DNA from: Torpedo marmorata
Taxonomy: Eukaryota
Assembly (NCBI GenBank): GCA_977017645.1
Contig: OZ360219.1
Location: 1,984,001-2,048,000, forward strand
DNA: 64,000 bases
Direction of reading: 5' to 3'
Below, one piece after another: positions 3,272-39,234 of the stretch (within the stretch, counting starts at the first letter, position 1; the number at the start of each line of letters is the position of its first letter). Below the pieces are notes generated by a model. That model was given only the letters and a program-made list of their open reading frames with translations, was not told where the DNA came from and did no database searches. The position numbers and the translations under genes were made by a program.

Positions 3272-3734
3272 ACAAAAGGTTGGGGTAAGCGGGTCTTTTT
3301 CAGGATGGCAGTATGTGACGAGTGGAGTGCCGCAGGGATCGGTGTTGGGTCCTCAGTTGTTTGTCATTTATGTAAATGATTTGGATGAAGGGATTATTAA
3401 TAACTGAGCAAATTTGCAGATGACACTAAACTGGGTGGCGGTGTAAAGTGTGAGGAGGATGTCAGGAAAATGCAGAGGGACTTGGACAGGTTGGGGGAGT
3501 GGGCTGAAGAATGGAAGATGAAGTTTAATGTGAGCAAATGTGAGGTTATCCATTTTGGGGGCAGTAATAGGAAAGCTGAGTATTATTTAAATGGAGACAA
3601 GCTAGGGAGTGGGGAAGTGCAAATGGATCTGGGTGTACACTGAAGGCTAACATGCAGGTTCAGAAAGCTGTGAAGAAGGCAAATGGCATGTTGGCTTTCA
3701 TAAAGAGGGGATTGGAGTATAGGAGCAGAGACGC
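3272..3734 (+). mobile_element. CR1 LINE RT fragment, left half (interrupted by BEL element)
   Basis: [11 protein letters not shown] and KFADDTKLGG motifs; sequence resumes at 9640. Confidence 0.85.
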
Positions 3735-4339
3735 TATAAGTAACGGTGACTTCGCTCCACCAATAGTCACCTGGAGGCTAAGTGTGGTCCTTGTCTTTGA
3801 CGCGTTTTAATCAATTTACTAACAAAGTCCAATATGTTCAAAAACCTTTATTTTCACACATGATTTGCAGTAATCTTCAATGACTTTAATATAAACAGTT
3901 CTTGTAAACGATGTATGATAAGTTCCTTTAAATAATTCTTTAAACAATTCCAAAATGATATGAAAACACTGTAGAACGATGTAAAAGTTATAAAACGATA
4001 TAAAACGGTCAATAAAGATGTGGAGACCAGACTCACCCTCCATACATCTTTTCCTTTCTTTGTTCTCTCTCTCTCCAATGGCTCTGCGCATGCTCCAACG
4101 CGCATACTACAATTCCCAGCCTCCCACGCGCACAATGACGTCACTCTATACTGCGCATGCGCCCGTCGGCACTCCAGCGCATGCGCAGAGCACAAAACGG
4201 GCTGATAGCAGCCCGCAGACAATGCAAGCACTCCGAACGGGCCGAAGACGGCCCAGCAACAACTACGCGGCGCTCCAAGGTCCGACAAGACATCGGAGCG
4301 CCGCAACAACGGTAAGTAAACGAGCCTACGGCTCTTACA
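3735..4339 (-). repeat. 3' LTR of BEL element
   Basis: Direct repeat of 9035-9639; minus-strand ends TGTAAG...CTTATA. Confidence 0.95.
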
Positions 4340-4554
4340 CCGGCCCCTAATTATTATAATTAGACGTAATGTCTTGAATAATAATTACACTATAAATTAT
4401 AAATAACAATAACCATAATATTCAAAACAATACAAATCTTCTTTCTTCCTTCTTCATAAATCTAGAGTTTACCATAACTCTGATTCAACAAAAGTCTGTA
4501 ACCTGTGAAATATACAACAACAAATAAAGTCAGTTTATATTTATCAAAGTTCCT

Positions 4555-4730
4555 CTGTCTCCAACAAAAGACAGACCTGGTTAATAGGTCTGTTTAGAAA
4601 ACCAGTCTTAGCTTTAATTCGCACTTGACGCACAAGTCCTCTTTGCCTTGAAAAGTCTCAATAATCTTTTCCAAGTAACCAGGAATTTCTTGAAGTTGAA
4701 CCATCCATAACAATCACAATGTCTCTTTAA
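4555..4730 (-). pseudogene. Frameshifted relic of BEL integrase C-terminal (DUF5641-like) region
   Basis: Minus strand reads DIVIVMDGSTSRNSWLLGK / GLVRQVRIKAKTGFLNRPINQVCLLL, the typical BEL pol C-terminus. Confidence 0.75.
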
Positions 4731-4763: not shown

Positions 4764-7700
4764 TCAACCAGTAAACCTCAAATCCTCCTCAGACAAAATA
4801 GATACAGTTTTTCTTTTGAATTTAACACAAGGCACTTCTTCAGCACGTCGTTTCACTTTATTCCTTTCTTCAGTGTTCCACTTCTCATGTGAAGAATTTA
4901 AACTCTTAGAATTAGAATTTGAATATTTATCTGATTCTTTCGATTTTAAACAGGTCTGTTTAACCACTCTGGTTTCTATTGCTCTTTCCTGCAATTCTAA
5001 ATCCAATTTCGCAACTTTCAATTCAGTCTCAGTTCTTTCCGAGAAATTAATAATTTGATCTGAAGTCAAAATATCATTTGATACATTGATATTTCCATTG
5101 TCAATCCTGTTGCGACAAACTTGAAATTTTTTAATTTCTTCATCTTGTTTGTTACATTTCTGCAATGCAATATCACATTCTTTCTGTATTGTTAATTGTT
5201 GAACATTCAATTTACATTCTTGATTGGTTTTTAAAGTCAACTGTTTTGTGTTATTAACCAATAACTTGTTCTCTTTCAAAACATTAATCTCTTCCTCCAA
5301 CCTTTTACATTTTGATAATGCTGAATCTCTTTCCTCAATAACTGTATTCATTTCTTCAGCAGTTATTCTTTTCTTCCGCTTTCTGACTTTGCGAGTTTTA
5401 CTTACAATTAAATCTTTCTGTTTACTGTTTTCTTGCTTATTTAATATTTCCAATTCTCCTTTCAACATTTTGTTCTCTGAATCATTATTCTTTATTCCAT
5501 CAGCACAATTTTCTGTGTTCTCCATTTTTACATCACATTGCAATAATTCTTCATTAGCTTTGTCAATTGTAATCTCTGAACTACAAAATCTACATTCAGA
5601 TTTGTTTTCAGTCACTTGTTTTATTCCTGTATTTGATTCAATTACACATGAATGATCAACAGTATTATTTGCAACATCTTCTAATACTTCACTTTCATCC
5701 ATTTCTGACGAAATTAATTTCTTCAATGTTGTTTTAAATACCACTGATTTATTTTTACATTGATCTGTTTTCTTTTCTTCATAAGTGATTTTCTTATTCA
5801 CGGTTTTTTGCTCTTCTCTTAACTCTTCAAATTTCTCAACTGAAATTTTATTAACATTTATCGCTACCTGTTCCTGAGCAATATCATTATTTCTTTCCAT
5901 TGGTCCATTGATTGCCCAACCAAGTATGGTTCTAATAGCGTAAGGTCCATTCCTTTTACTTTCTATTACTTCTTTTGGTACCAAAACCTTTGGCACATCT
6001 GAACCAATCAGCATTTCTATCTCAGAATTAATTTCAGGTAAATAAACCTTCCACAGATAAGCTAAATGATGTATATCACTTTGATGAGGAATATTTCCTT
6101 CGTTCACAGGCATAGTCTTCTGAGTATATACACTTGGAAGATCACAAAATTTTTTGTCATCCAATCCAGCAACCTCTAAGCCTGAAACAATGTTAGTTTC
6201 AACAACCTTTTCTTGTCCCATAGTTTTTAACATAATTCTTGATTTTCTTCCTTGAATATTAAGTTTATTCATTAGTCCTTCCGTGCAAAAAGATGCAGTG
6301 CTGCCTGGGTCTAGAAATGCATATGTTTTTACTATTGCATCTCCTTTCTTGGCTTTGACTTGTACAGGCACTATTGAAAGTTTGCAGTTATCCACACCGG
6401 CCCCAGTAAGACCACTTGTCTGAACCGAGGTTATAACATTATTTTCTGTTGTTTCCTTTGTTTCTGTTTGCTCCTTTTCCAATTCCTTGTTTCTGTTATG
6501 GATATGCAAAATTCTAGGATGTTTAAAATTGCATATGTCACAATTAATTTGCTTCTCGCAGTTTTTACTGATGTGCCCTTTACACAGACAGTTAAAACAT
6601 ATTCCATTTTCCTTTAAGAAAGCGATCTTTTCCTTATGTTCCTTCTTTTCCAATCGTAAACACATTTCTAAAGTATGTCCACCTTTACAGAACAAACAAC
6701 TCTTTTCATTAGGCAAACTTTTCTTTTCCTTATTTATTTTGTCCTTTTCTTTACTTATAACTTGCACATTAGTAGCAAAAGTACTCCTTTTCACTTTCGG
6801 ACTAGACTGTGAATTAGACTTCCTTACATCTTTGCTCATTGAATTATCTCTGGTATTTCCATATAGTGGATCTGTTTCAACATACACTTGTCGTTCAAGA
6901 AAATTTACCAAATCCTTTAAAGTAATTGTTCGACCATAATTTACTTGTAAATCACAAGCCAAATTTCTCCATCTATCCCATACCTTGTAAGGTAATTTTT
7001 CTAAAATGATTCGCATATTACTATGCACATCAAGCTCACGAATACCATCGATTTCTTCCATAGCATTACAACATCCTCTTAAAAACAAAGTATATTCTTG
7101 CAAAGCCTTTACATCATTTTGTTTTATTGATGTCCATTTAAGAGCTTTATCCATATAAGCTAAAGCAATTCGATGTTTGTTGCCAAAATATTGTTCCAAT
7201 AAATCCTTAGCTTTGTCTAATCCTCTTCCTGAAGACATTTGTTTACAACTTTTAACCAGTTCTTTTGGATGTCCCTTTGTGAACATTTCCAAATAATAAA
7301 GACATTCATCTCGATCTTGGCATTTATCTTCAATATTGCGTTTGAAAGATCTCATAAACGATTGATATTGAAGTGGATCACCATCAAAAGTTTGTATCTC
7401 TTTCTTGGGTAAAGAAGAGAGAGACTGTAACTGAAACAATGATGCAGCAATTTCATTTTGTCTTTCCTTGGATGACAATACATTGCTCTGTTCACTGTCT
7501 CGTGTTGTATGCAATGTATCTGGAAACCTTACTGGTGTAGTTTCTTCCATATTTCTGATGCTTGACTTATATAACAAAGAAGCTACTTCGTTCGACCGAA
7601 CCCAAGCCGCAGCTTTGCTTTCAGATGTTATTATTGGTACATGTGACTCGATACCAATATGCTCTTGAAAGGTTTGTCCTTGTATATGTAAGTTTTGTAT

Positions 7701-8588
7701 CCTTGGTTCTAAAATATCTATTCTTTTGGTTGGTTTCTTTTCCTGTGACTCCTTTTTTGAATATGACCTTTTATTATCAGATAATTTAGATAATTTACTG
7801 CTAGCACCAGATACCATTGAGCCTTCTATTGCTTTCTTTTCTGCCTTGGCAATAGCAATGTTTGCTTCCAGCTCCTGCTGTTCTTTTCTCTGCCTTAGCT
7901 GCTCCTTCTCTTGTCTTAGCTGCTCCTTTAGCTGCTCCTCCTTTTGTCTTAGCTGCTCCTTTAGCTGCTTCTCATTTTGTCTTAGCTGCTCCTCCTTTTG
8001 TCTTAGCTGCTCCTTTAGCTGCTCCTCCTCTTGTCTTAGCTGCTCCTTTAGCTGCTTCTCATTTTGTCTTAGCTGCTCCTCCTCTTGTTCTAATATAAAT
8101 TTATCCTTAAGCGTTTTTTGTTGTGCAAGAAGAGTGGCCAATTTAACATCAATCTTTGTACGTGACGACGCAGAACTTGAAGTACGAGAAACTCTGGAGC
8201 TCGAACCAGAACTTCTTTTGCTTCTCCTGCTTTCAGCATTTGAGACACTGTCACTTGCTTGTATTTCGTCCTGCAGTTCATATGTTGTCTTCATACTTAC
8301 CTCTTTATCCAATTCAAATTGTTCATCATTTGTTGATACAATTTCAGCCATTTCCAAGTTATCTTCTTGTTCCACTAATAAAGCTGCCTCTTCATCCTTT
8401 GCCTGCTTCAATCTTTCAATAAGAACCTTTTTATTTCCACTTATGTCCTTTTTCAGTCGCTTCAATTCTTCTTTAATATCCGCAACCTTCATGTCTTCAA
8501 TACGTTGGTCCTCAACAGCAACATCAGCGGTTGCTGCGTCAGCTGCTGATAAATCAGTAGCTGCTGTATCAGTGGCTGCTGCGGCCAT
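4764..8588 (-). CDS. Chimeric SAP - coiled coil - BEL Gag (3 Cys/His knuckles) - aspartic protease - MIPOL1-like coiled-coil polyprotein
   Basis: Uninterrupted ORF (track 4764-8630; good-context ATG at 8588, MAAAATD). SAP-like IEDMKVADIKEELKRLKKDISGNKKVLIERLKQA; Gag TFDGDPLQYQSF; knuckles CLFC..H..C, CFNC..GH..C, CDIC..H..LH; protease AFLDPGS; GPYAIRTILGW. Confidence 0.88.
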   Translation of the reverse strand: MAAAATDTAATDLSAADAATADVAVEDQRIEDMKVADIKEELKRLKKDISGNKKVLIERLKQAKDEEAALLVEQEDNLEMAEIVSTNDEQFELDKEVSMKTTYELQDEIQASDSVSNAESRRSKRSSGSSSRVSRTSSSASSRTKIDVKLATLLAQQKTLKDKFILEQEEEQLRQNEKQLKEQLRQEEEQLKEQLRQKEEQLRQNEKQLKEQLRQKEEQLKEQLRQEKEQLRQRKEQQELEANIAIAKAEKKAIEGSMVSGASSKLSKLSDNKRSYSKKESQEKKPTKRIDILEPRIQNLHIQGQTFQEHIGIESHVPIITSESKAAAWVRSNEVASLLYKSSIRNMEETTPVRFPDTLHTTRDSEQSNVLSSKERQNEIAASLFQLQSLSSLPKKEIQTFDGDPLQYQSFMRSFKRNIEDKCQDRDECLYYLEMFTKGHPKELVKSCKQMSSGRGLDKAKDLLEQYFGNKHRIALAYMDKALKWTSIKQNDVKALQEYTLFLRGCCNAMEEIDGIRELDVHSNMRIILEKLPYKVWDRWRNLACDLQVNYGRTITLKDLVNFLERQVYVETDPLYGNTRDNSMSKDVRKSNSQSSPKVKRSTFATNVQVISKEKDKINKEKKSLPNEKSCLFCKGGHTLEMCLRLEKKEHKEKIAFLKENGICFNCLCKGHISKNCEKQINCDICNFKHPRILHIHNRNKELEKEQTETKETTENNVITSVQTSGLTGAGVDNCKLSIVPVQVKAKKGDAIVKTYAFLDPGSTASFCTEGLMNKLNIQGRKSRIMLKTMGQEKVVETNIVSGLEVAGLDDKKFCDLPSVYTQKTMPVNEGNIPHQSDIHHLAYLWKVYLPEINSEIEMLIGSDVPKVLVPKEVIESKRNGPYAIRTILGWAINGPMERNNDIAQEQVAINVNKISVEKFEELREEQKTVNKKITYEEKKTDQCKNKSVVFKTTLKKLISSEMDESEVLEDVANNTVDHSCVIESNTGIKQVTENKSECRFCSSEITIDKANEELLQCDVKMENTENCADGIKNNDSENKMLKGELEILNKQENSKQKDLIVSKTRKVRKRKKRITAEEMNTVIEERDSALSKCKRLEEEINVLKENKLLVNNTKQLTLKTNQECKLNVQQLTIQKECDIALQKCNKQDEEIKKFQVCRNRIDNGNINVSNDILTSDQIINFSERTETELKVAKLDLELQERAIETRVVKQTCLKSKESDKYSNSNSKSLNSSHEKWNTEERNKVKRRAEEVPCVKFKRKTVSILSEEDLRFTG
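7870..8090 (-). repeat. In-frame tandem repeats encoding E/Q/K/L coiled coil (EEQLRQ/KEQLRQ)
   Basis: Repeated ttagctgctcc units. Confidence 0.85.
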
Positions 8589-9034
8589 TTTACTCGTTTT
8601 GTTCCTCTTTCCTTCAAGCATACACAACACTAGTCAAACAACAGTCCCCAATGGACCAGCGGCAGCAATTCCAATCTGTGTTCTTACTTGCTAAAGATAC
8701 ACAGAAGGAGTCCACAGACTTATGCCTACCACTTCTAATGACTGTAATGTGCTGCAATCCTTAAACGAGTTTCAACCACAACATCCGTCACTAATATCAC
8801 TGATTTTCCAAAAATAGTTTCTCCAACGTATTTATAGGACACTTTATTATAAGATTTGAAGCTTTAAATCCCTCTCTGTCTGTTATTCATGGCAGATGGA
8901 TGTGGATTACAAACTGCCCCCAACTCGAGGCATCTCCAAAATGGCCACCAATTTATATCAGTCCAAAGCACAGAGAGTTTTTTCTATCTTCTTTCCTTCA
9001 AACTTCTGTTCCAAACAGCCAGCTCTTTATTGAC

Positions 9035-9639
9035 TATAAGTAACGGTGACTTCGCTCCACCAATAGTCACCTGGAGGCTAAGTGTGGTCCTTGTCTTTGA
9101 CGCGTTTTAATCAATTTACTAACAAAGTCCAATATGTTCAAAAACCTTTATTTTCACACATGATTTGCAGTAATCTTCAATGACTTTAATATAAACAGTT
9201 CTTGTAAACGATGTATGATAAGTTCCTTTAAATAATTCTTTAAACAATTCCAAAATGATATGAAAACACTGTAGAACGATGTAAAAGTTATAAAACGATA
9301 TAAAACGGTCAATAAAGATGTGGAGACCAGACTCACCCTCCATACATCTTTTCCTTTCTTTGTTCTCTCTCTCTCCAATGGCTCTGCGCATGCTCCAACG
9401 CGCATACTACAATTGCCAGCCTCCCACGCGCACAATGACGTCACTCTATACTGCGCATGCGCCCGTCGGCACTCCAGCGCATGCGCAGAGCACAAAACGG
9501 GCTGATAGCAGCCCGCAGACAATGCAAGCGCTCCGAACGGGCCGAAGACGGCCCAGCAACAACTACGCGGCGCTCCAAGGTCCGACAAGACATCGGAGCG
9601 CCGCAACAACGGTAAGTAAACGAGCCTACGGCTCTTACA
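9035..9639 (-). repeat. 5' LTR of BEL element
   Basis: Direct repeat of 3735-4339; CpG-rich with NRF1-like and CRE motifs. Confidence 0.95.
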
Positions 9640-10238
9640 GACGCCCTTCTGCAGTTGTACTGGGCCCTGGTGAGACCTCACCTGGAGTATTGTGTCCAGT
9701 TCTGGTCTCCAAATTTGAGGAAGGACATACTAGCTATAGAGGGTGTGCAACGCAGATTTACAAGGTTAGTTCCAGGGATGGCAGGGTTGACATATGCTGA
9801 AAGGTTAGAAAAACTGGACTTATATCCGATGGAGTTTAGAAGGATGAGGGGGAACATGATTGAGGTATACAAGATTATCAAGGGGATAGACAGGGTGAAT
9901 TCGGATTACTTGTTCCCAATGATGGGAGAGACGAGGACTAGAGGGCATAGTTTAAGAATACAGGGAAGGTCCTTTAGGATGGAGATGAGGAAAAATATTT
10001 TTATCCAGAGAAGTGTGAATCTGTGGAATGCTCTACCACAGAGGGTGGTAGAGGCAGATTCGCTGATTATGTTCAAAAGAGAGTTAGATAAGACTCTAGT
10101 GGGCAGAGGAGTTAAGGGTTATGGGGATAAGGCTGGAAAGGGGTACTGATAGTAGTGATCAGCTATGATCTGTAAAATGGCGGTGCTGGCTCGACGGGCC
10201 GAAGGGCCTACTCCAGCTCCTATTGTCTATTGTCTATT
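9640..10238 (+). mobile_element. CR1 LINE right half with 3' tail
   Basis: ORF 9655-10149 (LVRPHLEYCVQFWSP..TRTRGH..NLWNALP); terminal (ctattgt)n repeat. Confidence 0.9.
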
Positions 10239-16777: not shown

Positions 16778-17054
16778 TGTGGTAAACCACTGTGCTTGTA
16801 TTGGTGGTACGTATAGGTACTGCGGGCCGGACTGATGCTACTCCCTCCCCTCCCTTGGGTGTCCAGGTAATCCCTCCCCTTTCCTCACCTGAATAAAGGC
16901 CACTGTATCTCGGCCATCCCCCTTCAGTCCGGACCTGATCGAGGAGGAAGCTCAGCTCCATTCTTAGCCAATAAAAGCCTATGATTCACTCGCTCTCACA
17001 GTCTTCGAGTTGTTATTGATAGGCCTATCAATTTTATTGGCTAAAGAACTTCTG

Positions 17055-17972
17055 ATGGAAGGAGCACTACGACCAGCTATCCTAGACCTCGACCACCTAG
17101 CCCCCGAGGCTGGTAACATCTTTGAACACTGGCTGGCCTGCCTCGAATCGTTCATGTTCACAGTGAAAGCCGAAAGTGAAGAGGAACAACTGAGAGTCCT
17201 TACCTCCAGGGTGAGCCATCGGGTGTACACGACGGTAAGAGAACACCGAACCTACACGGGAGCCATCGGGGCCCTGAAAGGAATCTACCTAGCGCCCGTC
17301 AACGCGGTCTACGCGCGATACCGGCTCTACTCACGGAGGCAGCGAACCGGGGAATCGACTGTGGAATATGTCAGGGCCATCCAGTCACTTGCACGGGCGT
17401 GCGACTGTAAAGCCCAGACTGCGGAGGAACACTTGCGAGTGGTGGAGCGAGATGCGTTCATCATGGGGCTCAGGTCGGTAGACGTGCGCCAGAGACTATT
17501 AGAGCACGCCGACCTGGACTTTGCGGGGGCGGTAGCGATGGTCAACACGCTGGAGACCGCGCAGCAGAACGCTGGTGCCATGCAGGCCCAGCCCGCAGCG
17601 TGGTCGGCCCCATCCCCTAGCCCGGTGAACGAACTGACCGCCGCCGCCGCCATCCGTGCCGACCCGATCGCGACCGCCGCCATCTGTGCCGACCCCATCG
17701 CGACCGCGATCCTCACCGCCGCTGCCGCCAGCCGCGAGCCCGAGAAGTGTTACTTCTGCGGGCTTGAAAAACACCCGCGGAAGCGCTGCCCGGCCCGCGA
17801 TGCGACTTGTTCCGGATGCGGCAGGAAAGGCCATTACATGAAGGCCTGCCGCTCCAAGTCGCGCCCGGGCCCGAGTAGCGCCGCGTGCGAGCTGCGGGGG
17901 CAGCCATCCTACCTGAATCTGCAGCAGCTTCCAGCGCCGACCTCGTGCGAGCCGCGGGGCGGCCATCTTTGA
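17055..17972 (+). CDS. gag: Gag with two zinc knuckles
   Basis: ATG at 17055; CYFCGLEKHPRKRC and CSGCGRKGHYMKAC. Confidence 0.88.
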   Translation: MEGALRPAILDLDHLAPEAGNIFEHWLACLESFMFTVKAESEEEQLRVLTSRVSHRVYTTVREHRTYTGAIGALKGIYLAPVNAVYARYRLYSRRQRTGESTVEYVRAIQSLARACDCKAQTAEEHLRVVERDAFIMGLRSVDVRQRLLEHADLDFAGAVAMVNTLETAQQNAGAMQAQPAAWSAPSPSPVNELTAAAAIRADPIATAAICADPIATAILTAAAASREPEKCYFCGLEKHPRKRCPARDATCSGCGRKGHYMKACRSKSRPGPSSAACELRGQPSYLNLQQLPAPTSCEPRGGHL

Positions 17973-20900
17973 CGCTGGCACTTCCGGAACCGGCCTCGTG
18001 TAAACCGCGGGGGCGGCCATCTTTGATGCTGGCACTTCCGGAACCGGCCTTGTGTGAGCCGCGGAGGCGGCCATCTTTGATGCTGGCACTTCCTGCACCT
18101 CCAGCATCTGTACTTCCAGCGATCCTACCGCCGCCATTTTACAGCAGCGACACGTGCGAGCCGCGGGGGCGGCCATCTTTGTCGGAGGTGGAAGAAGAAG
18201 AAGAAGAAGAAGACGATGCATACTTGTCGGCGGTGGAAGAAGAAGACGATGAATACATCGCAACTCTGGCGTCAGTCACCCTTGACCAGAGCATCCCTCA
18301 CCAGTTAGCAAGATCCATGATGGACATTCTGGTGGAGGGACACAAGACCACCTGTCTCTTCGATACGGGCAGTACGGAGAGCTTCATCCACCCGGACACT
18401 GTCCAGCGCTGTGGCCTCACGATTATACCGGTAAGCCAGAAGGTGGCCATGGCGTCTGGGGCACACACAACAGACATCCGGGGGGCTTGTGTGGCTGATA
18501 TTGTGGTACAGGGGACTAAGTACAAACATTTTTCCTTGTTAATAATGAATCGGTTATGTGCACCTGTATTGTTGGGGCTTGATTTTCAGAGTCACTTGCG
18601 CAGTGTCACGATGCGGTATGATGGTCCCCACCCTGCGATCACTGTAGTCAACCCCCAGTTCCTTAATAATGAGCCCCAGACTACCTGTGGCCTCTCCACT
18701 CTTAAGATCTCGCCTCCGTCGCTATTCGCCAACCTGACCCCGGACTGTAAGCCTGTTGCAACCATGAGCAGGCGATACAGTTCGGAGGACAGGGCGTTTA
18801 TCAGGGCGGAGGTTCAGAGGTTACTACAAGAGGGGATTATTGAAAAGAGCAATAGTCCCTGGAGGGCCCAGGTGGTCGTGGTAAAAGGGGCCAAGAGGAG
18901 GATGGTGGTGGACTACAGTCAGACGATTAACCGGTTCACCTTGTTGGACGCATACCCGCTACCAAGGATAGCGGACATGGTTAATCAGATCGCCCAGTAC
19001 AAGGTCTTTTCCACGATTGACCTGAAGTCCGCGTACCATCAGCTCCCGATCCGTCGGGAGGACCGCCAGTACACTGCGTTTGAGGCTGACGGGAAACTGT
19101 TCCACTTCCTGCGGGTCCCGTTCGGGGTTACTAACGGTGTTTCTGTGTTCCAGCGGGAGATGAATAACATTGTGGACGTGTATAAACTTAAAGCCACCTT
19201 CCCGTACCTGGACGATATCACCATCTGTGGGCTGGATCGCCAGGATCACGACACCAACCTCCGGAAGTTCCTGCAGGCGGCTAAAGCACTTAACCTAACA
19301 TATAATAAAGATAAATGTGTGTTCGGTACCACGCGCCTCGCTATTTTGGGGTACGTGGTAGAGAACGGGGTGATTGGACCAGACCCCGATCGCATGCGCC
19401 CCCTACTGGAACTTCCACTACCCTCCACCCCCAAAGCACTCAAGCGATGCCTCGGGTTCTTTTCATATTATGCACAGTGGGTACCGAATTATGCAGATAA
19501 GGCCCGACCCCTGGTGAAATCCACCGTATTCCCCCTTGGCTCGGAGGCACGTAAGGCCTTTGACCTTATAAAGGGGGACATTGCGCGAGCAACAATGCAC
19601 GCGGTGGACGAGGAGATACCTTTCCAGGTAGAGAGTGACGCATCGGACTTCGCGCTGGCTGCTACCCTCAACCAGGCGGGAAGGCCGGTGGCGTTTTTCT
19701 CGCGCACCCTTCAAGGCCCCGAAATTCGGCACTCCGCGGTGGAGAAAGAAGCCCAGGCCATCGTGGAAGCAATCAGGCACTGGAGGCACTATCTCGCCGG
19801 CAAGCATTTTACCCTGCTGACCGACCAACGCTCGGTAGCATTTATGTTCAGCAACCAGCAGCGGGGTAAGATCAAAAACGATAAGATCATGAGGTGGAGA
19901 ATAGAACTCTCCACCTACAACTACGACATCCTCTACCGGCCCGGGAAGCTCAATGAGCCCTCAGACGCTCTATCCCGGGGATCGTGCGCCAGCGCGCAGA
20001 TCGACCGATTAACTGCCCTACATGACCTCCTCTGTCACCCAGGAGTTACCAGGCTTTTTCACTTCGTGAAGGCACAGAACCTGCCATACTCCCTGGAAGA
20101 GGTCAGGGCTTTGACCAGAGACTGTCGTGTTTGCGCAGAGTGCAAACCTCAGTTCTACCGCCCGGACAGGGCACAGCTGATCAAAGCCACACGCCCCTTT
20201 GAACGTCTTAGTATTGACTTCAAGGGGCCCCTCCCCTCCACAAACCGCAACGTGTACTTCCTAAACATTGTTGACGAGTACTCGCGGTTCCCTTTTGCCA
20301 TCCCCTGCCCCGACACCTCAGTTACCTCAACCATAAAAGCTCTCCACCAGGTATTCACGCTGTTTGGGTTCCCAAACTACATACATAGCGACCGGGGAGC
20401 AGCTTTTATGAGTGAGGAGCTGCGCCGGTACCTGCAGGACCGAGGCATCGCCACTAGCAGGACAACAGCATACAACCCCCGAGGAAACGGTCAGGTGGAA
20501 AGGGAGAACGCCACGGTGTGGAAGGCCGCGCTCCTAGCCCTTAAGTCAAAGGGCTGGCCGGTCTCCCGCTGGCAGGATGTTCTCCCCGAAGCCCTCCACT
20601 CTATCCGGTCCCTTTTGTGCACTTCCACCAACGCAACTCCTCATGAACGATTTCTTTCTTTCCCTAGGAAATCGACCACCGGGACCTCCCTTCCTGCCTG
20701 GCTGATGTCCCCGGGACCAGTGCTGCTCCGGAACCACCTTCGGAGCAGCAAATATGAACCGACGGTTCAGAGGGTGCAGTTGGCGCACGCCAACCCCCAG
20801 TATGCGTACGTGGTCTTCCCGGATGGACGAGAAGACACCGTCTCCATCAGAGACCTGGCGCCTGATGGGGCGCCAGTTGGGCATTCCGACGGGCAAGTCC

Positions 20901-21127
20901 ACGTACCACAGAACACGCAGCAACCTCTTCCTAACGCCCCACCCGATGTGCTAGACCCCGCCCCCTCAACGGCATCGCAGTTGTCCCGAGAGGCCAGGCA
21001 GGAGGCGACGGCACAGACGACCCTACCACCTCCCCCGTCACTCATATCTTCCCCAGCACCACAGCCCGACCCGCCATTACGCAGGTCACAGCGAAAAATT
21101 CGGCCGCCGGATCGCCTCGATCTGTGA
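17885..21127 (+). CDS. pol: Pol polyprotein (protease, RT, RNase H, integrase)
   Basis: LFDTGS; YLDD; VESDASD; H..HPG..C..C; IDFKGP / HSDRG / GQVEREN (DDE). Confidence 0.93.
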   Translation: MRAAGAAILPESAAASSADLVRAAGRPSLTLALPEPASCKPRGRPSLMLALPEPALCEPRRRPSLMLALPAPPASVLPAILPPPFYSSDTCEPRGRPSLSEVEEEEEEEDDAYLSAVEEEDDEYIATLASVTLDQSIPHQLARSMMDILVEGHKTTCLFDTGSTESFIHPDTVQRCGLTIIPVSQKVAMASGAHTTDIRGACVADIVVQGTKYKHFSLLIMNRLCAPVLLGLDFQSHLRSVTMRYDGPHPAITVVNPQFLNNEPQTTCGLSTLKISPPSLFANLTPDCKPVATMSRRYSSEDRAFIRAEVQRLLQEGIIEKSNSPWRAQVVVVKGAKRRMVVDYSQTINRFTLLDAYPLPRIADMVNQIAQYKVFSTIDLKSAYHQLPIRREDRQYTAFEADGKLFHFLRVPFGVTNGVSVFQREMNNIVDVYKLKATFPYLDDITICGLDRQDHDTNLRKFLQAAKALNLTYNKDKCVFGTTRLAILGYVVENGVIGPDPDRMRPLLELPLPSTPKALKRCLGFFSYYAQWVPNYADKARPLVKSTVFPLGSEARKAFDLIKGDIARATMHAVDEEIPFQVESDASDFALAATLNQAGRPVAFFSRTLQGPEIRHSAVEKEAQAIVEAIRHWRHYLAGKHFTLLTDQRSVAFMFSNQQRGKIKNDKIMRWRIELSTYNYDILYRPGKLNEPSDALSRGSCASAQIDRLTALHDLLCHPGVTRLFHFVKAQNLPYSLEEVRALTRDCRVCAECKPQFYRPDRAQLIKATRPFERLSIDFKGPLPSTNRNVYFLNIVDEYSRFPFAIPCPDTSVTSTIKALHQVFTLFGFPNYIHSDRGAAFMSEELRRYLQDRGIATSRTTAYNPRGNGQVERENATVWKAALLALKSKGWPVSRWQDVLPEALHSIRSLLCTSTNATPHERFLSFPRKSTTGTSLPAWLMSPGPVLLRNHLRSSKYEPTVQRVQLAHANPQYAYVVFPDGREDTVSIRDLAPDGAPVGHSDGQVHVPQNTQQPLPNAPPDVLDPAPSTASQLSREARQEATAQTTLPPPPSLISSPAPQPDPPLRRSQRKIRPPDRLDL
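17943..18185 (+). repeat. 54-bp in-frame tandem repeat in Gag-PR linker
   Basis: Unit encodes SC(E/K)PRGRPSLMLALPEPA; the first unit is 53 bp. Confidence 0.85.
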
Positions 21128-21475
21128 GAGGAGGGTCTGTATGTATATATGTATATATTTTTTTTGTGTACATGGAGTGGTCACGTCACCCCGCTGGACT
21201 CTTTTTAAAAAGGAGGGGTGAATGTGGTAAACCACTGTGCTTGTATTGGTGGTACGTATAGGTACTGCGGGCCGGACTGATGCTACTCCCTCCCCTCCCT
21301 TGGGTGTCCAGGTAATCCCTCCCCTTTCCTCACCTGAATAAAGGCCACTGTATCTCGGCCATCCCCCTTCAGTCCGGACCTGATCGAGGAGGAAGCTCAG
21401 CTCCATTCTTAGCCAATAAAAGCCTATGATTCACTCGCTCTCACAGTCTTCGAGTTGTTATTGATAGGCCTATCA

Positions 21476-22080
21476 AGGGGGATCTCATTGAAACCTCTTG
21501 AATATTGAAAGCGCTGGAAACAGTGAAAGTGCAGAGGATGTTTCCAGTAGTCGGAGAGTCTAGGACCAGAGGGCACAGCCTTAGAATAAAAGAATGTCCC
21601 TTTGGAACAGCGATTCTCAACGGGGGCCACAGAACATTTCAGGGGAGGGCACAGACTGAAATCATAAAATATTTTAATGTTTTTTATGTAGTCGATAGGA
21701 GAAAAGTACAGAAGAAACCAACCAATTGACTGCTTGACAGGAAAGGGGGCCATTAAACTTTGAACAGAATCCTAAGGGGGCCTTAGCCAAAAAAAAAAGG
21801 ATTGAGATTGGGTGCTTTGGAATAGAGATTAGGAGAAAGTTCTTCAGCCAGAGGATGGTGAATTTGTGGAATTCGTTCCTACAGACATCTATGGTGGCCA
21901 GGTCATTGGATAGATTTAAAGCGGTGATTGATAGATTTGTGATTAGTATGGGTGTCAAAGGTTGTGGGGAGAAGGCAGGAAAATAGGGTTGAAAGGAAGA
22001 ACATATCACCCATGATTCAAATGGCAAAGCAGATTCAGGGGGCTGAACGGCCCAATTCTGCTTCTATTCTCATGTTATGT
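21476..22080 (+). mobile_element. CR1 right half with 3' end (contains hAT MITE)
   Basis: RMFPVVGESRTRGHSL motif; CR1 3' UTR. Confidence 0.8.
21608..21814. mobile_element. hAT (Charlie-like) MITE, ~207 bp
   Basis: 8-bp TSD CTTTGGAA; left TIR CAGCGATTCTCAAC (right TIR degenerate); homologous to 58500-58705. Confidence 0.75.
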
Positions 22081-26615: not shown

Positions 26616-26659
26616 TTAAAGCCCTGGAATACCTGGACAGTAAAGATGCATACATCAGG

Positions 26660-29600
26660 TGTTGTAATGTGAGCTGTTTTGAAAGTGAGGCTGGTTCCGG
26701 AGTAAGGGAGGGGTTTTACTTCCTGTTTTTATTTACTTCTGGTGTGCCTTGTATATTGCTTAGAGACCATGCCGTGTGGTCCAGAGGGAAAAAACAGAGG
26801 AAGAAAATAAGCCTCTGTATATGTATGGTTTTGCTGTTCCAGATAAAGTTGTTCTTTTGAGCTTGAAGTTGTTGAGTGGTCCTTTTTCAAAGTAGAAGTT
26901 ACCACATTTTTGGCGACGAGGTGAACTGGTTTTGTGGAAGTGTCGACCTGTTTTTTAATCGGAGCTGTGCGTTTGGATGGCTACGTTCGGGATTATCGGT
27001 GAATTTGTGGAAGGAAATGAGGATTGGTTGGAGTATGAGGAAAGGTTGGGACAATTTTTCTGTGATAATGGAATTACGAAGGAGGCTAAGAAGCGCTCTA
27101 TTCTCCTGAGTGTGTGTGGGGCACAGACTTACAAGTTGATAAGGAACTTAGCCACACCGTGGAAACCGGGGGAAATTCTATTTGACTAACTGGTCAAGCT
27201 TGTGGTGAACTACCACAATCCGAACCCTTCTGTGATAGGCCAACGGTTTAAGTTTCACAGCCTTTTCAGGAAGCCAGGTCAGTCTGTGGCCAATTTTGTG
27301 GCCGAGCTTCGGCAGCTATCGGAGCATTGTGATTTCGAGGCAGTATTGGATGATATACTCCATGATAGATTGGAATGTGGCATTAATAATGACGCCATAC
27401 AACGCCGCATGTTGGGGGAAACCCCATCGCTGACTTTCAAGAAAGCCCTAGAGATTGCCCAAGGCATGGAGATGGCTGCTAATAATGCCAAGGATATCCA
27501 GAAAGGACATGGGGGGTCGCAGTCAGCGGCAGTGTACCAAGTCAGGAGGGAGACTGGTATACAGGCAAAGCGGGTGGAATGTTTTCGGTGTGGAGGGACG
27601 CACTATGCAAATGATTGCAAATTCAAAGACACTGTCTGCTATGGTTGTGGCAAAAAGGGACATTTAGCTAAGAAGTGCAGGAGTTCAAAGGGTAAGGTTA
27701 AGTCTGGGCAGGGGAAAGCTCAACGGGCTCCGGCAGCCACACACTACCTAGAAGAAACAGATGAAGAGACAGCGTGTACTTACAATATGTTTGGAGTGGA
27801 AACAGATGAGGAACCACCTGAACCATATTCTGCCACAATCACTGTCAGGGGAAAGGATATTAAGTTTGAGGTTGATTCAGGGGCCACAGCATCGGTCATC
27901 AGTGAGGAGACCTACAGGAGGACATGGGGGTCCAACCTGCCTCCCATCAGACCGTCAAAGCTCAAACTCAGGACCTATACGGGGCAGCCCATAGGGGTGT
28001 TATATGTGAATATTTTAGCTGGGGGTCAGAAGGCGGAAGCCAGGCTGGTGATAGCTCAGGGTAGCGGGCCCAGTCTTTTGGGCCACGATTGGCTTCGCAA
28101 AATCCGGCTCAACTGGCATGAAATTAAGTATGCACACAGGGCGGAGGACATTCTGCAGCGCTACAGTGACGTTTTCAGGGATGAGCTGGGCACACTGAAG
28201 GGCGTGACAGTGAAACTCAATGTTGACCCTGAGGCCACACCATGTTTTTTTAAGCCCAGGGTGGTGCCCTACACCATGAAAGACAAGGTCGAGGAGGAGC
28301 TGAAACCTTTACAGCGGTTCGGCATCATTGAGTCCGTCTAGTTTTCAAGGTGGGCCGCTCCCGTTGTTCCAGTTTTGAAGGCAGACAAAATGGTGAGGAT
28401 ATGTGGGGACTATAAGCTTGCGGTGAATCAGGTCTCTAAGCTGGAGGAGTACCCATTGCCATGGGTGGGTGACCTGTTTGCGACCCTGTCAGGGGGTAAG
28501 CTATTCACAAAGCTGGACATGAGCCACGCTTACCAACAGCTGCTGCTCGACGAGGATTCTAAGGAGTACGTCACAATTAACACACATAAGGGATTATTTA
28601 AATACAATCGCCTGGTGTTTGGAGTGGCGTCCAGCCTCGCCATTTTCCAAAGGACAATGGACACCTTGCTGCAGGGGATTCCGCACGAAGTGGTGTATCT
28701 GGATGATATTTTGATCACGGGGGCCACGGAGGTGGAGTATCTGGCTAACTTGGAACAGGTGTTGAAGAGGCTCTCAGATGCAGGGCTGCGATTGAAACGC
28801 AGCAACTGTGTGTTCCTGGCACCGAGTGTGACCTACCTGGGACACAAGATCACAGCTGAGGGGCTCTGCCCAGTGGAGGACAAAGTGAGAGCTATCAAGG
28901 AGGCCCCAAGCCCAAAGAGCGTCACGGAACTTAGATCATTTTTGGGCATGGTGAATTATTATGGCAAGTTTCTTCCTGACCTCTCAAGGGTTTTGGCCCC
29001 ACTGTACAAGCTGTTTCACAATAACACCAAGTGGCAGTGGAGTGAAGAGCAGGAGGAAGCTTTCAAGGACGCGAAAGAACTCCTCCACTCAGCGAAGCTG
29101 CTGGTTCACTATGACCCAGATAAGGAGATCACCCTTTCATGTGACACCTCGTCCTATGGAGTAGGGGCAGTTCTCTCACATGTAATGGAGGACCGTTCAG
29201 AGAAGCCTATTGGTTTTGCTTCACGTACCCTGACGGCTGCTAAATGGGATATTCACAGCTAGACAAAGAAGGTCTGGCCATTGTTTTTGCGCTCAAACAT
29301 TTTCATCAGTACCTCTATGGAAGTGCATTCACAATTTATACAGATCATAAACCACTGATGAGCCTGTTCAGTGAGACCAGATGTGTCCCACCGCTAGCCT
29401 CAGCTAGGATACAGCGTTGGGCTCTCAAATTGTCAGCTTACCAGTACACTATTGTGTATAGAGGAGGTGGGATAATGCAAATGCCGATGCGCTGAGTCGT
29501 CTACCTTTACCTGAGACACCGGATACTACATATGTGCCTCCAGAGACGGTGTTTTCATTGGAGAGGCTGTCAGACACACCTGTAAAGGTGACTCAGATAA

Positions 29601-31364
29601 AGCAGTGGACAGAGAGGGACCCAGTCCTGTCTCAAGTCAAGACTTTCCTTTTACAAGGATGGCCCAGTATCGTGGAAGGAGAGGAACTGAAGCCTTATGC
29701 CAAACGTAAGACAGAATTGAGTCTGCAGGATGACTGCATTTTGTTGGGGGCGAGGGTCATCGTGCCTCCCCCTGGCCATTCAAAGATTGTGGAGGAAGTT
29801 TATGAGACTCATCCAGGGGTGTCTCGAATGAAAAGCCTTGCAAGATCCTACGTCTGGTGGCCAACAATGGATCAGGATCTGGAGAACAAGGTAAAATCAT
29901 GCACACAACATCAGATCAATCAGAAAATGCCACCAGCAGCTCCTTTGCACCCATGGGAGTGGCCAGACCACCCCTGGTCTAGGCTACATTTGGACTTTGC
30001 TGGCCCTTTTATGGGGCAGATGTTTGTAGTAATGGTGGATGCGCATTCCAAATGGATAGAAGCTCACATCATGGGCAACATTACAGCCCACTCAACCATA
30101 GACAAACTCAGGCAAGTGTTTGCAGTCCAGGGGTTGCCTGACACTCTGGTCACTGATAATGGCCCGACGTTTACCAGTGAGCTGTTCAGTGAGTTCATGC
30201 AGCAGAATGGCATTCATCACATTCGGACGGCCCCTTTCCACCCAGCCTCAAATGATTTGGCTGAGCGGGCTGTTCAGACAGTGAAGGAAGGCCTGAAGAG
30301 GATGACAGGGGACTCTCTTAGCATCAGGCTTTCACGTTTCTTGTTTAAATACCGCCTTACGCCGCAGACTACAACTGCACGCACTCCAGCGGAGATGCTG
30401 ATAGGGCGTAGGCCCAAGTCAAGATTGGACCTGCTGTGCCTGGACATGAAGGCCAGAGTGGAGAGGAAGCAGGAAAAGCAGATGGAGGGACATGATCAAC
30501 ATGAGCGAGAAAGACAGTTAAAACCAGATGACAATGTCTATGTGAGAAACAATCAGTAATGGCTACCCGGGGTTATTCTTAAGCAGAGTGGGCCTGTCTC
30601 CTATGTTGTTAAGCTGACTGACGGACATGTTTTCCGCAGACAACAGGACCGTGTGTGCTTGCGTCATGATACATACGCAGAGGCAGACAGTTCCATGGAG
30701 TTTCCAATGGTGAAACAGACTACTGTGGAAGTGTGTTCCTCAGTGACTTTGCCAGAGGGAGAGACGCTGGCAGAGGGGTCTGGGTCCCCTGAGGAGGATG
30801 GACATTCCCACACGGACACACAGACCCTTCTTATGTCCCCAGCACCAGATCCGCCCAAAACACCTTCGTCAGCGGTGCCAGCTGCGTCATCGGGGGTAGT
30901 GCGCAGATCACAGCACACTCGCAAACCTCCTGATAGACTGAATCTTTGATTGGACAGTTTTTTAGTGGACTGAATGTGGAATCTGCCACGTTTTTCAGAT
31001 GTTTTAGTATTGTTAAATTGTTGCTGAGACGTTATTATAAGTTTTAGGAGAACGCAAGCTAATGACACCATTGTTCTTTTATACTTGGGGCATGTTGGAT
31101 TTTAAAGGGGGAGAAGTGTTGTAATGTGAGGTGTTTTGAAAGTGAGGCTGGTTCCGGAGTAAGGGGGTGATTTTACTTCCTGTTTTCTTTTACTTCCGGT
31201 GTGCCTTGTATATAGCTTCGAGACCATGCCGTGTGATCCAGAGGCAAAAAAACAGAGGAAGAAAATAAGCCTCTGTATATGTATGGTTTTGCTGTTCCAG
31301 ATAAAGTTGTTCTTTCGAGCTTGAAGTTGTCAAGTGGTCCTTGTTCAAAGTAGACGTTACTACA
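26660..31364 (+). mobile_element. Older Ty3/Gypsy LTR retrotransposon (K02A2.6/Mag-like) with tRNA-Ser PBS
   Basis: Diverged LTRs 26660-26906 and 31117-31364; TSD TCAGG; PBS TGGCGACGAGG (26911-26921) complementary to the tRNA-Ser(GCU) 3' end; PPT AAAGGGGGAGAAG. Confidence 0.92.
26977..30949 (+). pseudogene. pol: Disrupted gag-pol
   Basis: Pieces with CCHC knuckles, VDSGA, YLDD, LSCDTS, HPG and LVTDNG..AER, separated by stops and frameshifts. Confidence 0.88.
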
Positions 31365-32551
31365 TCAGGATGCTCGTTATCAATTGCAGTTCAGCATTTA
31401 ACACCAACATCCCCTCAAAACTGATCAGCAAATTCCAAGACCTGGGAGTTAACACCCCACTGTGTAATTGGATCCTGGATTTCCTCACCTCCAGACCACA
31501 ATCAGCGAAGATTGGTAAGAACTTCTCATCCACAATTTCCATCAGTACCAGAGCACCACAGGGCCGCGTTCTTAGCCCCCTGATCTACTCACTTTTCACC
31601 TATGACTGTGCAGCTCGGTATGACAACACCACCATCTACAAATTCACTGATGATACCATGGTAGTGGGTTGTATAAAATGGGGCGATGAGTCATCATACA
31701 GGAGGGAGATTGAAAACTTGGCTGAATTGTGCACCAACAACAACCTTGCACTCAATGTCACCAAAACCAAGGAGCTGATTGTTGACTTCAGGAAAGGAAA
31801 ACCAGAGGTATACAATCCAGTGATCATTGGGGGAATCAGAGGTGGAGAGGGTGAGCAAATTTAAGTTCTTGGGAGTCACTATCTCGGAGGATCTTTCCTG
31901 GATCCAATGCACTAATGGCATCGTGAAGAAAGCACGTCAATGCCTCAACTTCCTCAGGAGTTTGCGGAGGTTTGGTATGACATCAGAAACCCTGGCAAAT
32001 TTCTACAGATGTGTGGTGGAAAGTGTGTTGACCAGCTGCATCACGGTCTGGTATGGGGACACCAATGCCCCTGAGAGAAAAGCCCTGCAAAAGGTAGTGG
32101 ACACAGCCCAGGACATCATGGGTAAAATGCACCCCACCATCAAGAACATCTATGGGGAACGCTGCCATCGGAGAGCAGCAGCAATCATCAAGGATCCACA
32201 CCACCCAGCACACGCTCTGATCTCACTGCTACCATCAAGAAAGAGGTATAGGTGCCACAAGACTCGCACCACCAGGTTCAGGAACAGCTGCTACCCCTCC
32301 ACCATCAGACCCCTCAACGACAAACTCAATCAGGGACTCATTTAAGGACTCTTACTTTTGCACTTTATTATTTTTTTCCCTCTCTGCATTGCACACTCAG
32401 TTTGTTTACATTTCTTTATTTGTTTACATGTGTACAATGTGTACTTTTTTTTTTGCACGACAAATAATTGGTAATTCTGCCTCGCCCGCACGAAACAGAA
32501 TCTCAGGGTTGTATGTGATGTCATGTATGTACTCTGACAATAAATCTGAAT
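31365..32551 (+). mobile_element. Rex1/Babar-type LINE (left stub at 26618-26659), target of the Gypsy insertion
   Basis: ORFs 31334-31864 and 31827-32345; tail tgacaataaatctgaa. Confidence 0.88.
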
Positions 32552-34329: not shown

Positions 34330-37300
34330 TGATGAGCCCATCAATAACTTCAAAAGACTAGAAGTTACACAAGAACTGAAAGGCTTTTATTGGCAAAAGA
34401 GTGGAGCTACATTTGTGCTGGTGATCTGTCCCGGACTGGGGGAGGAGTGGTGACACAATGGCCTTTATTCAGGGGGTCTGTGGGAGGAGCCACCGGGACA
34501 GTCAGCAGAGGGCATGTCCAGACCTATCACCCAGCCCACAACCTATACATAGTGGTTTACCACATTCACCCCTCCTTTTTAAGAGTCCAACGGGGTGAAG
34601 GGTATAACAATATTTACAAAGAATTCAAATTACAAATCGAGTCGATCAGGCGGTCGAGTCCGCCGCTGTGATCGGCGCAGTACTTGTGGTGATGGGGCAG
34701 GCGGCGGTGCTGCCTCCTGCCTGATTTGGGGTACCAGCACATCTGGCATTCGCAAAACCTCGGGTGAACATGCCGGTACGTTTGGTGTCATGTTTGAATT
34801 GGGTGGTGCCTCTTGTGTGTCCTTAATGGTAGGTACGTGGGTAACAGTATCTATGGAGTGTTCGAGGGAGGCGGCGGGTCCCAGTGCTCCTGCGGGCGCC
34901 AGGTCCTGGATGGAGACCGTGTCTTCCCGCCCATCAGGAAAGACCACGTAGGCGTACTGGGGGTTCGCGTGTAATAATTGAACTCTCTCGACCATTTATT
35001 GCTCCTGACATGTTTCCGGAGCAGCACTGGCCCTGAGGACATCAGCCATGCTGGTAGGGTAGTCCCGGTGGTTGACTTCCTGGGGAAGGAAAAGAGCCTC
35101 TCATGAGGTGTAGCATTGGTGTATGTGCATAGCAGAGATCGGATAGAGTGGAGTGCCTCGGGAAGGACTTCTTGCCAGCGGGAGACTGGTAATACCTTAG
35201 ACCTGAGGGCTAAGAGTGTGGCCTTCCAGACCGTGGCATTCTCCCTCTCCACTTGTCCATTGCCCCGTGGGTTATAGCTCATGGTCCTGCTAGTCGCGAT
35301 ACCCCTGGCCAGCAGGTATTGGCGCAGCTCGTCACTCATAAATGAGGACACTCGGTCACTATGGATATAGCAGGGGTATCCAAACAATGTGAAGAGTTTG
35401 CGGAGGGCTTTTATGACTGAGGTGGTAGTGGTATCGGGGCAGGGAATGGCGAAAGGGAACCGCGAGTACTTGTCAATGACATTGAGGAAGTATACATTGT
35501 GGTTGGTGGAGGGAAGGGGGCCCTTAAAGTCGACGCATAGTCACTCAAATGGGCAGGTTGCTTTTATCAACTGTGCCTTGTCAGGTTGGTAGAAGTGTGG
35601 TTTGCATTCTGCGCAGACTTGGCAGCTGCCAGTCATCGTCCCGACCTCTTCCAGGGAGTACGGCAGGTTACGGGCTTTCACAAAGTGGAAAAGCCGGGTG
35701 ACTCCGGGGTGGCAGAGGTCGCAGTGGAGGGCACATAACCAGTCGATCTGTGCGCTAGCGCACGTCCCCCGGGATAGAGCATCGGATGGCTCATTGAGCT
35801 TCTCGGGCCGGTACATTATATCATAGTTGTAGGTGGAGAGTTAAATTCTCCACCTCAGGATTTTATCATTTTTGATTTTACCCCGCTGCTGGCTGCTGAA
35901 CATGAATGCGACTGAGCGTTGGTCAGTCAGCAGGGTAAACCTTTTGCCGGCCAGATAGTGCCTCCAGTGCCTGATAGCTTCCACTATGGCTTGGGCCTCG
36001 TTCTCCACCGCTGAGTGCCGAATTTCTGGGCCTTGAAGGGTACGGGAGAAGAACGCCACTGGTCTTCCCGCCTGGTTGAGGGTAGCAACCAGTGCGAAGT
36101 CGGACGCGTCGCTCTCTACTTGAAAGGGAGTGGACTCGTCCACCGCATGCATTTCTGCTCTGGCAATGTTCCCTTTTATGAGGCTGAAAGCCTCACGTGC
36201 CTCCGCTGCAAGGGGAAAAGTGGTGGACTTGACTAGGGGTCTGGCCTTGTCCGCATAATTAGGGACCCATTGAGCATAGTAAGAAAAGAAGCCCAAGCAC
36301 CTTTTGAGGGCTCTGAGGGTGTGTGGAAGCGGTAGTTCCAACAGGGGGCGCATGCGGTCGGGGTCGGGGCCGATGACCCCGTTCTCCACAACACACCCCA
36401 GGATAGCGAGTCGGGTGGTTCCGAACACGCACTTACCCTTGTTATAGGTGAGGTTAAGTGCTTTGGCCGCCTGGAGGAACTTCCGAAGATTGTTATCGTG
36501 GTCCTGCCAGTCGTGACCGCAGATAGTGATGTTGTCTAGGTATGGAAAAGTGGCCTTTAATTTGTATTGGTCCACCATCTTATCCATCTCCCTCTGGAAG
36601 ACAGATACCCCATTTGTGACCCCAAAGGGGACGCGCAGGAAATTATAGAGTCTGCCGTCCGCCTCGAAGGTGGTGTAGGGGACGTCCTCCCGGCGAATGG
36701 GGAGCTGGTGGAAGGCAGATTTGAGGTCTATGGTGGAGAATAGCTTATATTGGGCTATCTGGTTCAACATATCTGCGATGCGTGGTAGAGGGTATGCGTC
36801 AAGCTGTGTGAACCTATTGATGGTCTGGCTATAATCTACCACCATCCTGTTTTTCTCCCCGTTCTTGACGACCACCACCTGGGCCCTGCAGGGACTCGTG
36901 CTCGCCTCGATGATCCCTTCCCCAAGTAATCGCTGCAACTCTGACTTTTTAAAAAAAATATTTTATTTAAAATTTTTAAATCACACAATACACTGTATAA
37001 AATGCAAAATTATCAAAATACATGTGATACCTCTGACTTAATGAATGCCCTGTCCCCTGTGCTGTATCTCCTGCTTTTGGTTGCCACGGCTTTACAATCA
37101 GGGGTCAGATTGGCGAATGGTGTTGGGGGCGGGATCTTGAGTGAGGATAGACCGCAAGTAGTGTGGTGTGACGAAATATTTCTGCCGTTTTTAAGAAATT
37201 GGTGATTACCGACCGTAATTGGTGGGAGGGGACTGTCATACTCCATGGTCACACTTTGGAGGTGACTCTGGAAGTCAAGCCCCAGTAGTACAGGTGCACA

Positions 37301-38765: not shown

Positions 38766-39234
38766 ATTACCAATCCCTGAGGGTAGAAGTTTGGAGCAGT
38801 GAACAGAATTAGCTGAGGTAAGTTATAACACAGCAAAGGATTGATCGATTTGGACATTAAGAGGACAGTTCACAAAGAAATGGTTATCATATTTTAATGG
38901 GAAAAAAGTGGGGAGAAGGGGGGAGGTAAGAGGTTGCCTGTCATTTAGAGCAAGGTACAAGAATGTGAAAATGAATGGGAGAGGGAAATGGATTAAAGAT
39001 AACTGAAGTGGTGGTGAACATCAACGAAAATATGGGAACTAGGTATGAAATCTATCAGCGAACCAAGTCACTTAGTTATTCAAGATTCAAGGTTCATTTT
39101 ATTATATATAAAATACACAAAATTTGTTAACTTTTGCTTGCCATGAAGGCACACGAAGTGGCACCACTCGCCCGGCACCCCTGCCAATAAGAGAAAGAGA
39201 AGCAAAAGGGAGTCTCTTCAGAAACATCAGGTGT

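Follow-up and report, generated by a model that had tools for sequence, protein, structure and literature searches.

In the retrotransposon Tf1, RNase H cleavage is said to free the primer, which is reportedly retained, and a U5 stem is likewise reported. Self-priming is known for the Tf1/sushi and Tcn1 lineages of Gypsy and for the TAR/Houba/Osr-1 lineages of Copia, and the available part of the paper that reviews them gives as its diagnostic a complement of at least 10 nt starting 0–5 nt after the 5' LTR (PMC6317226). In Tj1, according to the accessible portion of its description, the sequence adjoining the 5' LTR can pair with a 10–12-nt stretch of the LTR, no tRNA site is present and a predicted cut frees the primer (PMC4600332). 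For the Belpaoviridae, the ICTV gives an 18-nt priming site for tRNA-Arg or tRNA-Gly, and names tRNA only (PMC8742986). The available sections of five Sinbad or survey papers (PMC3118150, PMC554778, PMC2774666, PMC6238403 and PMC8556966) make no mention of a primer binding site. No description of self-priming or of a spliced primer in BEL/Pao was found in the openly accessible literature, a scope that leaves aside subscription papers, Repbase and GyDB.

The window analysed here, a 64,000-nt stretch of Torpedo marmorata DNA, carries on its minus strand a BEL/Pao element flanked on both sides by the 5-bp target site duplication GCGTC (Table 1). Its two LTRs, 99.67% identical, start with TG and end in TA rather than CA, and the element has a polypurine tract, a BEL-type Gag with a triple Cys-His box and a protease. 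The RT-RNase H-integrase pol is missing from this copy and from most of its sisters, while a full pol is found in relatives that share the LTR. A local Pfam scan of the 1,289-codon frame returned SAP and a weak protease as its sole matches, and neither RT nor RNase H; the enzymes for priming must therefore come in trans. Homologues of the protein are BEL/Pao polyproteins with PF03564, PF05380 and PF18701, those with names coming from fish. The third zinc knuckle, CX2CX3HX4H, is common to this element and Sinbad (Belpaoviridae, Semotivirus), as described in the accessible part of PMC554778, and the families that share the RT motif of the clade are all classed as Sinbad (6/6) in the available supplements of PMC3118150, by motif look-up rather than tree placement. 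Knuckle pattern and motif look-up both point to the Sinbad superfamily. With 9,823 exact matches to a pattern of LTR end, site and leader in the 6.2-Gb genome, the focal element belongs to a high-copy family of Sinbad-type BEL/Pao LTR retrotransposons and is itself non-autonomous.

Table 1 Features of the focal element and of its predicted priming apparatus, in window positions
Feature	Position	Strand	Remark
3' LTR	3735..4339	-	carries second copy of the primer segment
Polypurine tract	4340..4352	-	adjoins 3' LTR on its upstream side
Integrase C-terminus, broken remnant	4535..4700	-	read in three frames, X at stops
1,289-codon open frame	4764..8633	-	BEL Gag (three zinc knuckles) with SAP domain, protease and a long coiled tail
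Primer binding site, conserved 10-nt core	9025..9034	-	directly after 5' LTR; 9024 pairs in about one third of copies
5' LTR	9035..9639	-	605 nt, TG...TA
Predicted U5 hairpin	9045..9071	-	just inside LTR end
Possible second helix, partner arm	9103..9109	-	rearranged copies often switch here
AATAAA, candidate poly(A) signal	9147..9152	-	downstream of primer segment
Possible second helix, first arm	9301..9307	-	just past predicted cut
Predicted cut AC/C, end point of minus-strand strong-stop DNA	9307..9308	-	from junctions in rearranged copies
Predicted self-primer	9308..9317	-	3' end at 9308; rarer forms extend back to about 9321
Initiator-like CCACATC	9317..9323	-	at primer 5' end
Two GCGCATGCGC and one TGACGTCA	9436..9486	-	GCGCATGCGC at 9486-9477 and 9462-9453; TGACGTCA at 9443-9436
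Target site duplication	9640..9644; second copy 3730-3734	-	flank sequence

The Gag-protease frame, with SAP at its N-terminus, ends in a tail of about 350 residues that has no Pfam match and is a feature of the non-autonomous family. A single frame of 1,285–1,342 codons was found in 9 of 20 sister loci; that so long a Gag-protease frame is kept in non-autonomous copies suggests selection on Gag in cis. Several 10-kb loci (within L031–L050) hold at least two family members, in tandem or inverted, and self-targeting or clustering is possible. The position of the LTR end also varies among subfamilies (L065, L067, L073 and L074, compared with window position 9035): the LTR of the window type abuts the site and other subfamilies have a 2–7-nt spacer, so that integrase end processing may vary.

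The sequence immediately 3' of the 5' LTR, GTCAATAAAGA (9034–9024), is the exact complement of TCTTTATTGAC (9318–9308) within the LTR, as the first-pass annotation had claimed. Only one of the 4,684 internal 11-mers, namely this site, has a complement in the LTR, which argues that the match is not due to chance; among the 4,685 internal 10-mers there are two, the site and its neighbour. The annotated length of 11 nt holds for this copy, whereas the conserved pair is shorter. In 29 sister copies, bases 1–9 of the site are invariant and base 10 is nearly so, and base 11 is A in 11, G in 15 and T in 3; counted by hand in the first 100 listed of the 9,823 pattern matches, it is A in 30. Because base 11 varies among copies, the conserved pair has 10 nt (9034–9025 with 9317–9308), and a reading of 11 nt as in Tf1 was dropped. 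The CCACATC and the promoter-cluster motifs noted in that annotation are all present in the sequence; we take GCGCATGCGC to be NRF1-type, TGACGTCA to be CRE-type and CCACATC to be initiator-like, as putative labels. GGTGAGT at 9337–9331 was considered as a splice donor, with no acceptor found before the primer, and no intron is claimed for the focal family.

We consider it very likely that this 10-nt LTR segment, probably the start of the capped transcript, pairs back onto the site, is cleaved between 9308 and 9307, and takes the role of a tRNA as primer of the minus DNA strand. Complementarity, covariation, intron-spanning matches and the positions of junctions form the basis of this reading. 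A site at the 5' LTR complementary to the element's own LTR, the lack of a tRNA site and a predicted cut are shared with Tf1, Tf2 and Tj1 of the Tf1/sushi group, as far as the available parts of their descriptions go. Unlike that group, the focal element is BEL/Pao, no chromodomain was found in it, and it does not have a Ty3/Gypsy chromovirus pol. It very likely self-primes and works like Tf1, but it is not a member of the Tf1/sushi group.

The reported absence of a TGG-type tRNA site was confirmed, as no TGG occurs within the first 8 nt after the 5' LTR. Comparison with tRNA ends, proposed in the same annotation, gave no tRNA match, the best reaching 7 nt among 28 host tRNAs of 9 anticodons. 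The element thus differs from the description of its family in that it has no 18-nt site for tRNA-Arg or tRNA-Gly. As a control, a Gypsy-type element of the window with a TGG-type site (26659–31365, plus strand) has an LTR complement of only 5 nt at that site. The pairing might instead be a structural helix serving packaging, dimerisation or translation, with priming left to some host RNA that has gone unrecognised, for instance a tRNA half. In favour of this are the ICTV statement for the family (PMC8742986), the priming of some Copia lineages by tRNA halves reported in the available part of PMC6317226, and the span of our tRNA comparison, which was only 9 anticodons. We nevertheless regard it as very unlikely, since over 22 families the site varies in sequence and yet always fits its own LTR, 0–5 nt past the LTR end, and since the junctions at 9308 and 9307 described below would be left unexplained. 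Moreover, fold-back or copying of the primer requires a plus-strand end within the 10-nt match, which the copy of an 18-nt tRNA stretch would not give.

Covariation was first visible within the genome, among 119 copies in four groups, one of which has an otherwise unrelated LTR. The pair occurs in three states, with three T, with four T, or with three T plus C. Site and LTR are in the same state in 95 copies, crossed in 6 and otherwise in 18; because the four groups are related, the agreement in these copies reflects not 95 but two or more compensated changes. Pairing of at least 10 nt is present in 90 of the 119 copies, and the 29 that fall below this mostly do so by single substitutions. In three of the four groups the base just past the pair is the most variable, at 0.49–0.63 compared with 0–0.32 inside the pair; the variation in the fourth fits CpG decay. 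The identical pair is present in autonomous relatives, which have this LTR together with a complete pol. A loss of the pairing in related elements, which the first-pass annotation had named as one outcome that would speak against it, was looked for, and the pairing was found to be kept with different letters, in subfamilies as well as in families.

The comparison across families is based on a metagenome scan that yielded 80 loci of the Sinbad-type clade, 21 of which entered the main test and make 22 families with the focal one; a scan of viral contigs found no relative. LTR ends were set by target duplication, second LTR or terminal repeat: two LTR copies fixed the end in 11 families, a terminal repeat in 2, and the match itself contributed in 9. 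All 22 families have an own pair of 10–15 nt, with a site that starts 0–5 nt past the LTR end and whose sequence differs between families, and so do all 11 families with ends fixed by two LTRs. Among the controls, 10 nt were reached by 12 of 462 cross pairs, mostly between relatives with similar sites, by 2 of 660 shuffles and by 1 of 105 downstream windows. TGG lies within the first 8 nt of the site in only 1 of the 22 families. In 18 of 25 elements the last two bases on the primer side are AC, and a C comes next. Of the other 59 loci, 10 are without a 5' region, a match was seen in 16 and, by eye, in 2 more, and 31 yielded no call; 13 of the latter were read by eye, and each is without one partner in its contig. 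This second pass added nine families, seven intron-split and two contiguous, and by eye a fit was also seen in L134, whose intron would be about 465 nt long, and in L141 together with its twin. A few second-pass matches of 10–12 nt without the usual end motif were taken as chance.

These counts bear on the reading of the match as chance or as the relic of a local DNA inversion, with the rearranged copies described below arising by post-integration microhomology recombination between copies. With about 10,000 copies in the family and an AT-rich match, chance has some room, but the uniqueness of the site and the covariation in the genome and across families leave this reading extremely improbable, the cross-family covariation largely refuting it. 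A relic at the DNA level is further unable to yield matches that exist only across canonical splice junctions, as found in 16 families.

Nine of the 22 families reach their longest match only when a segment of 74–186 nt is removed. These segments begin with GTAAGT (7 families), GTACGT or GTTCGT and end in a pyrimidine run followed by YAG, and their predicted removal lengthens the match from 5–11 to 10–15 nt. The seven intron-split families of the second pass have introns of up to 351 nt, so that matches existing only across a GT-AG intron of the LTR number 16 families in all; in L128 there is one mismatch, in the exon-2 part. Since such a match exists only across the predicted splice junction, the pairing would act at the level of processed RNA, and splicing would build the primer in the intron-type families. 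If the transcript starts where the match starts, the first exons of these families would be only 4–10 nt long, which counts against this reading. A quick RT tree, rooted at its midpoint and hence silent on intron gain versus loss, joins the contiguous type to the fish proteins that have names and to L112 and L131; the intron type sits on several other branches. The pattern used as diagnostic for the plant Tcn1 and TAR/Houba/Osr-1 elements in the available part of their description is present in all 22 families, in 7 only after predicted splicing; those elements differ in superfamily and host, and neither an intron nor genomic relics of priming appear in that part. The spacer of 0–5 nt between LTR and site and the intron-split primer of many relatives likewise set the clade apart from Tf1/sushi, and no Tf1 counterpart of the latter was found in the accessible portions of the literature.

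A further line of evidence comes from rearranged copies. A search that admitted any of nine two-base combinations behind base 11, with both bases unlike those of the usual leader, returned 135 matches with an extended site, and in 96 of the 100 listed the added letters are those templated by the LTR, in two forms that derive from LTR variants. When 30 of the extension loci were fetched, 22 were found to continue into an inverted LTR from the primer 3' end (LTR position 332, window 9308), and the same continuation was seen in 7 of 30 loci from other subfamilies. The inverted stretch ranges from 19 nt to all of U3 and sometimes goes beyond. In 10 of 19 loci examined, the LTR runs to the predicted cut, is followed by an inverted piece of U5 and then resumes from 9307. 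A strong-stop DNA with its end at 9307, joined to LTR RNA with its end at 9308, would leave such a structure by folding back or by switching. Eight of these ten resumption junctions have 4–7 nt of microhomology, which could steer a switch alone, while L363 and L364 have at most 1–2 nt; several share descent, which leaves about five events. The survey covered inversions at the site and the predicted cut only. The inverted-LTR junctions are the products expected from priming by an LTR RNA that would be cut between 9308 and 9307, and the LTR-templated extensions of the site in genomic copies are what retention of the primer and its copying by the plus strand would leave. With the covariation, the junctions at 9308 and 9307 support the self-priming that had been proposed for this BEL/Pao element, and make it very likely.

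In L322/L323 and L332/L333, rearranged LTRs with an inverted U5 piece stand at both ends of one element, so that such LTRs were replicated further. Three loci (L312, L315 and L368) consist of the LTR, then 16–29 nt of primer-side complement, then unrelated DNA, as if an end bearing the copied primer had been integrated.

Alternatively, the element's own LTR RNA could still be the primer but normally originate elsewhere than at the 5' end of the same molecule: in the 3' LTR copy, in read-through RNA or, acting in trans, in short transcripts made by other copies. The inverted extensions often cover all of U3 and in six loci (L323, L326, L331, L333, L336 and L337) reach the 3' internal region, and the site of six copies matches the LTR state of another subfamily. 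Such long extensions mean that the site is open as well to long RNAs, from the 3' LTR or from read-through, or to DNA fold-back, and copies with a full inverted U3 would derive from these and not from a short 5' piece. On the other hand, the ordinary copies (9,823) match over 10–11 nt only, as against 135 with extension. In the intron types, the 3' LTR must stay unspliced for the intron to be inherited and therefore would be unable to supply the full match. As the general source of the primer, LTR RNA from elsewhere is thus unlikely, and the 5' end of the same transcript is preferred.

Starting from that 5' end, the steps may be pictured as follows. Transcription would begin at about 9317–9321, and the RNA 5' end would fold back onto the site. 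If Tf1 is a guide, RNase H supplied in trans by an autonomous partner may then cut between 9308 and 9307, and the freed primer would be extended through U5 and R. It would stay on the minus strand, where the plus strand would copy it; this copying would rewrite the site in each cycle, which would account for the covariation as well as for the variability of the base next to the pair. In the intron types, the host would splice only the LTR copy at the 5' end, and the one at the 3' end would remain unspliced and pass the intron on. When folded from 9319, the RNA is predicted to place the primer on the site, next to the second helix and the U5 hairpin. This region is no more stable than shuffled sequences (z -0.26), and a second helix of at least 5 bp is found in 10 of 25 own pairs compared with 87 of 600 cross pairs, a modest enrichment.

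It is probable, though less firmly so than self-priming of the focal element, that the whole Sinbad clade is tRNA-independent and that the primer is, in a large part of the clade, a product of the host spliceosome. The split would leave priming to the spliced 5' copy alone and keep the unspliced 3' LTR and the DNA from mispriming and fold-back, and the intronless lineages, the focal one among them, would self-prime and leave inverted-LTR records of the cut site at single-nucleotide precision. The putative splice-built primer of the relatives is the newest part, self-priming itself being known from other superfamilies. If true, self-primed reverse transcription would extend to a third LTR superfamily, the description of all Belpaoviridae as tRNA-using would need correction, and a primer made by splicing would link the onset of reverse transcription to the RNA processing of the host. 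Such elements would presumably be independent of tRNA supply and of silencing by tRNA fragments, and annotation tools that demand a tRNA site would miss the Sinbad-type clade. The rearranged copies offer a route from sequence alone to primer ends and cut sites.

The window holds two further, related Gypsy-type elements, at 16778–21476 on the plus strand and 34345–38776 on the minus strand, whose sites are complementary to their own LTRs over 13 and 14 nt, respectively. The letters of the two pairs differ, and the LTR segment includes AATAAA. No chromodomain was found in the 1,082-aa frame of the element at 16778–21476. The two are a candidate second self-priming family. Tandem arrays of 27-nt and 33-nt units lie at 53625–54367 and 422–586.
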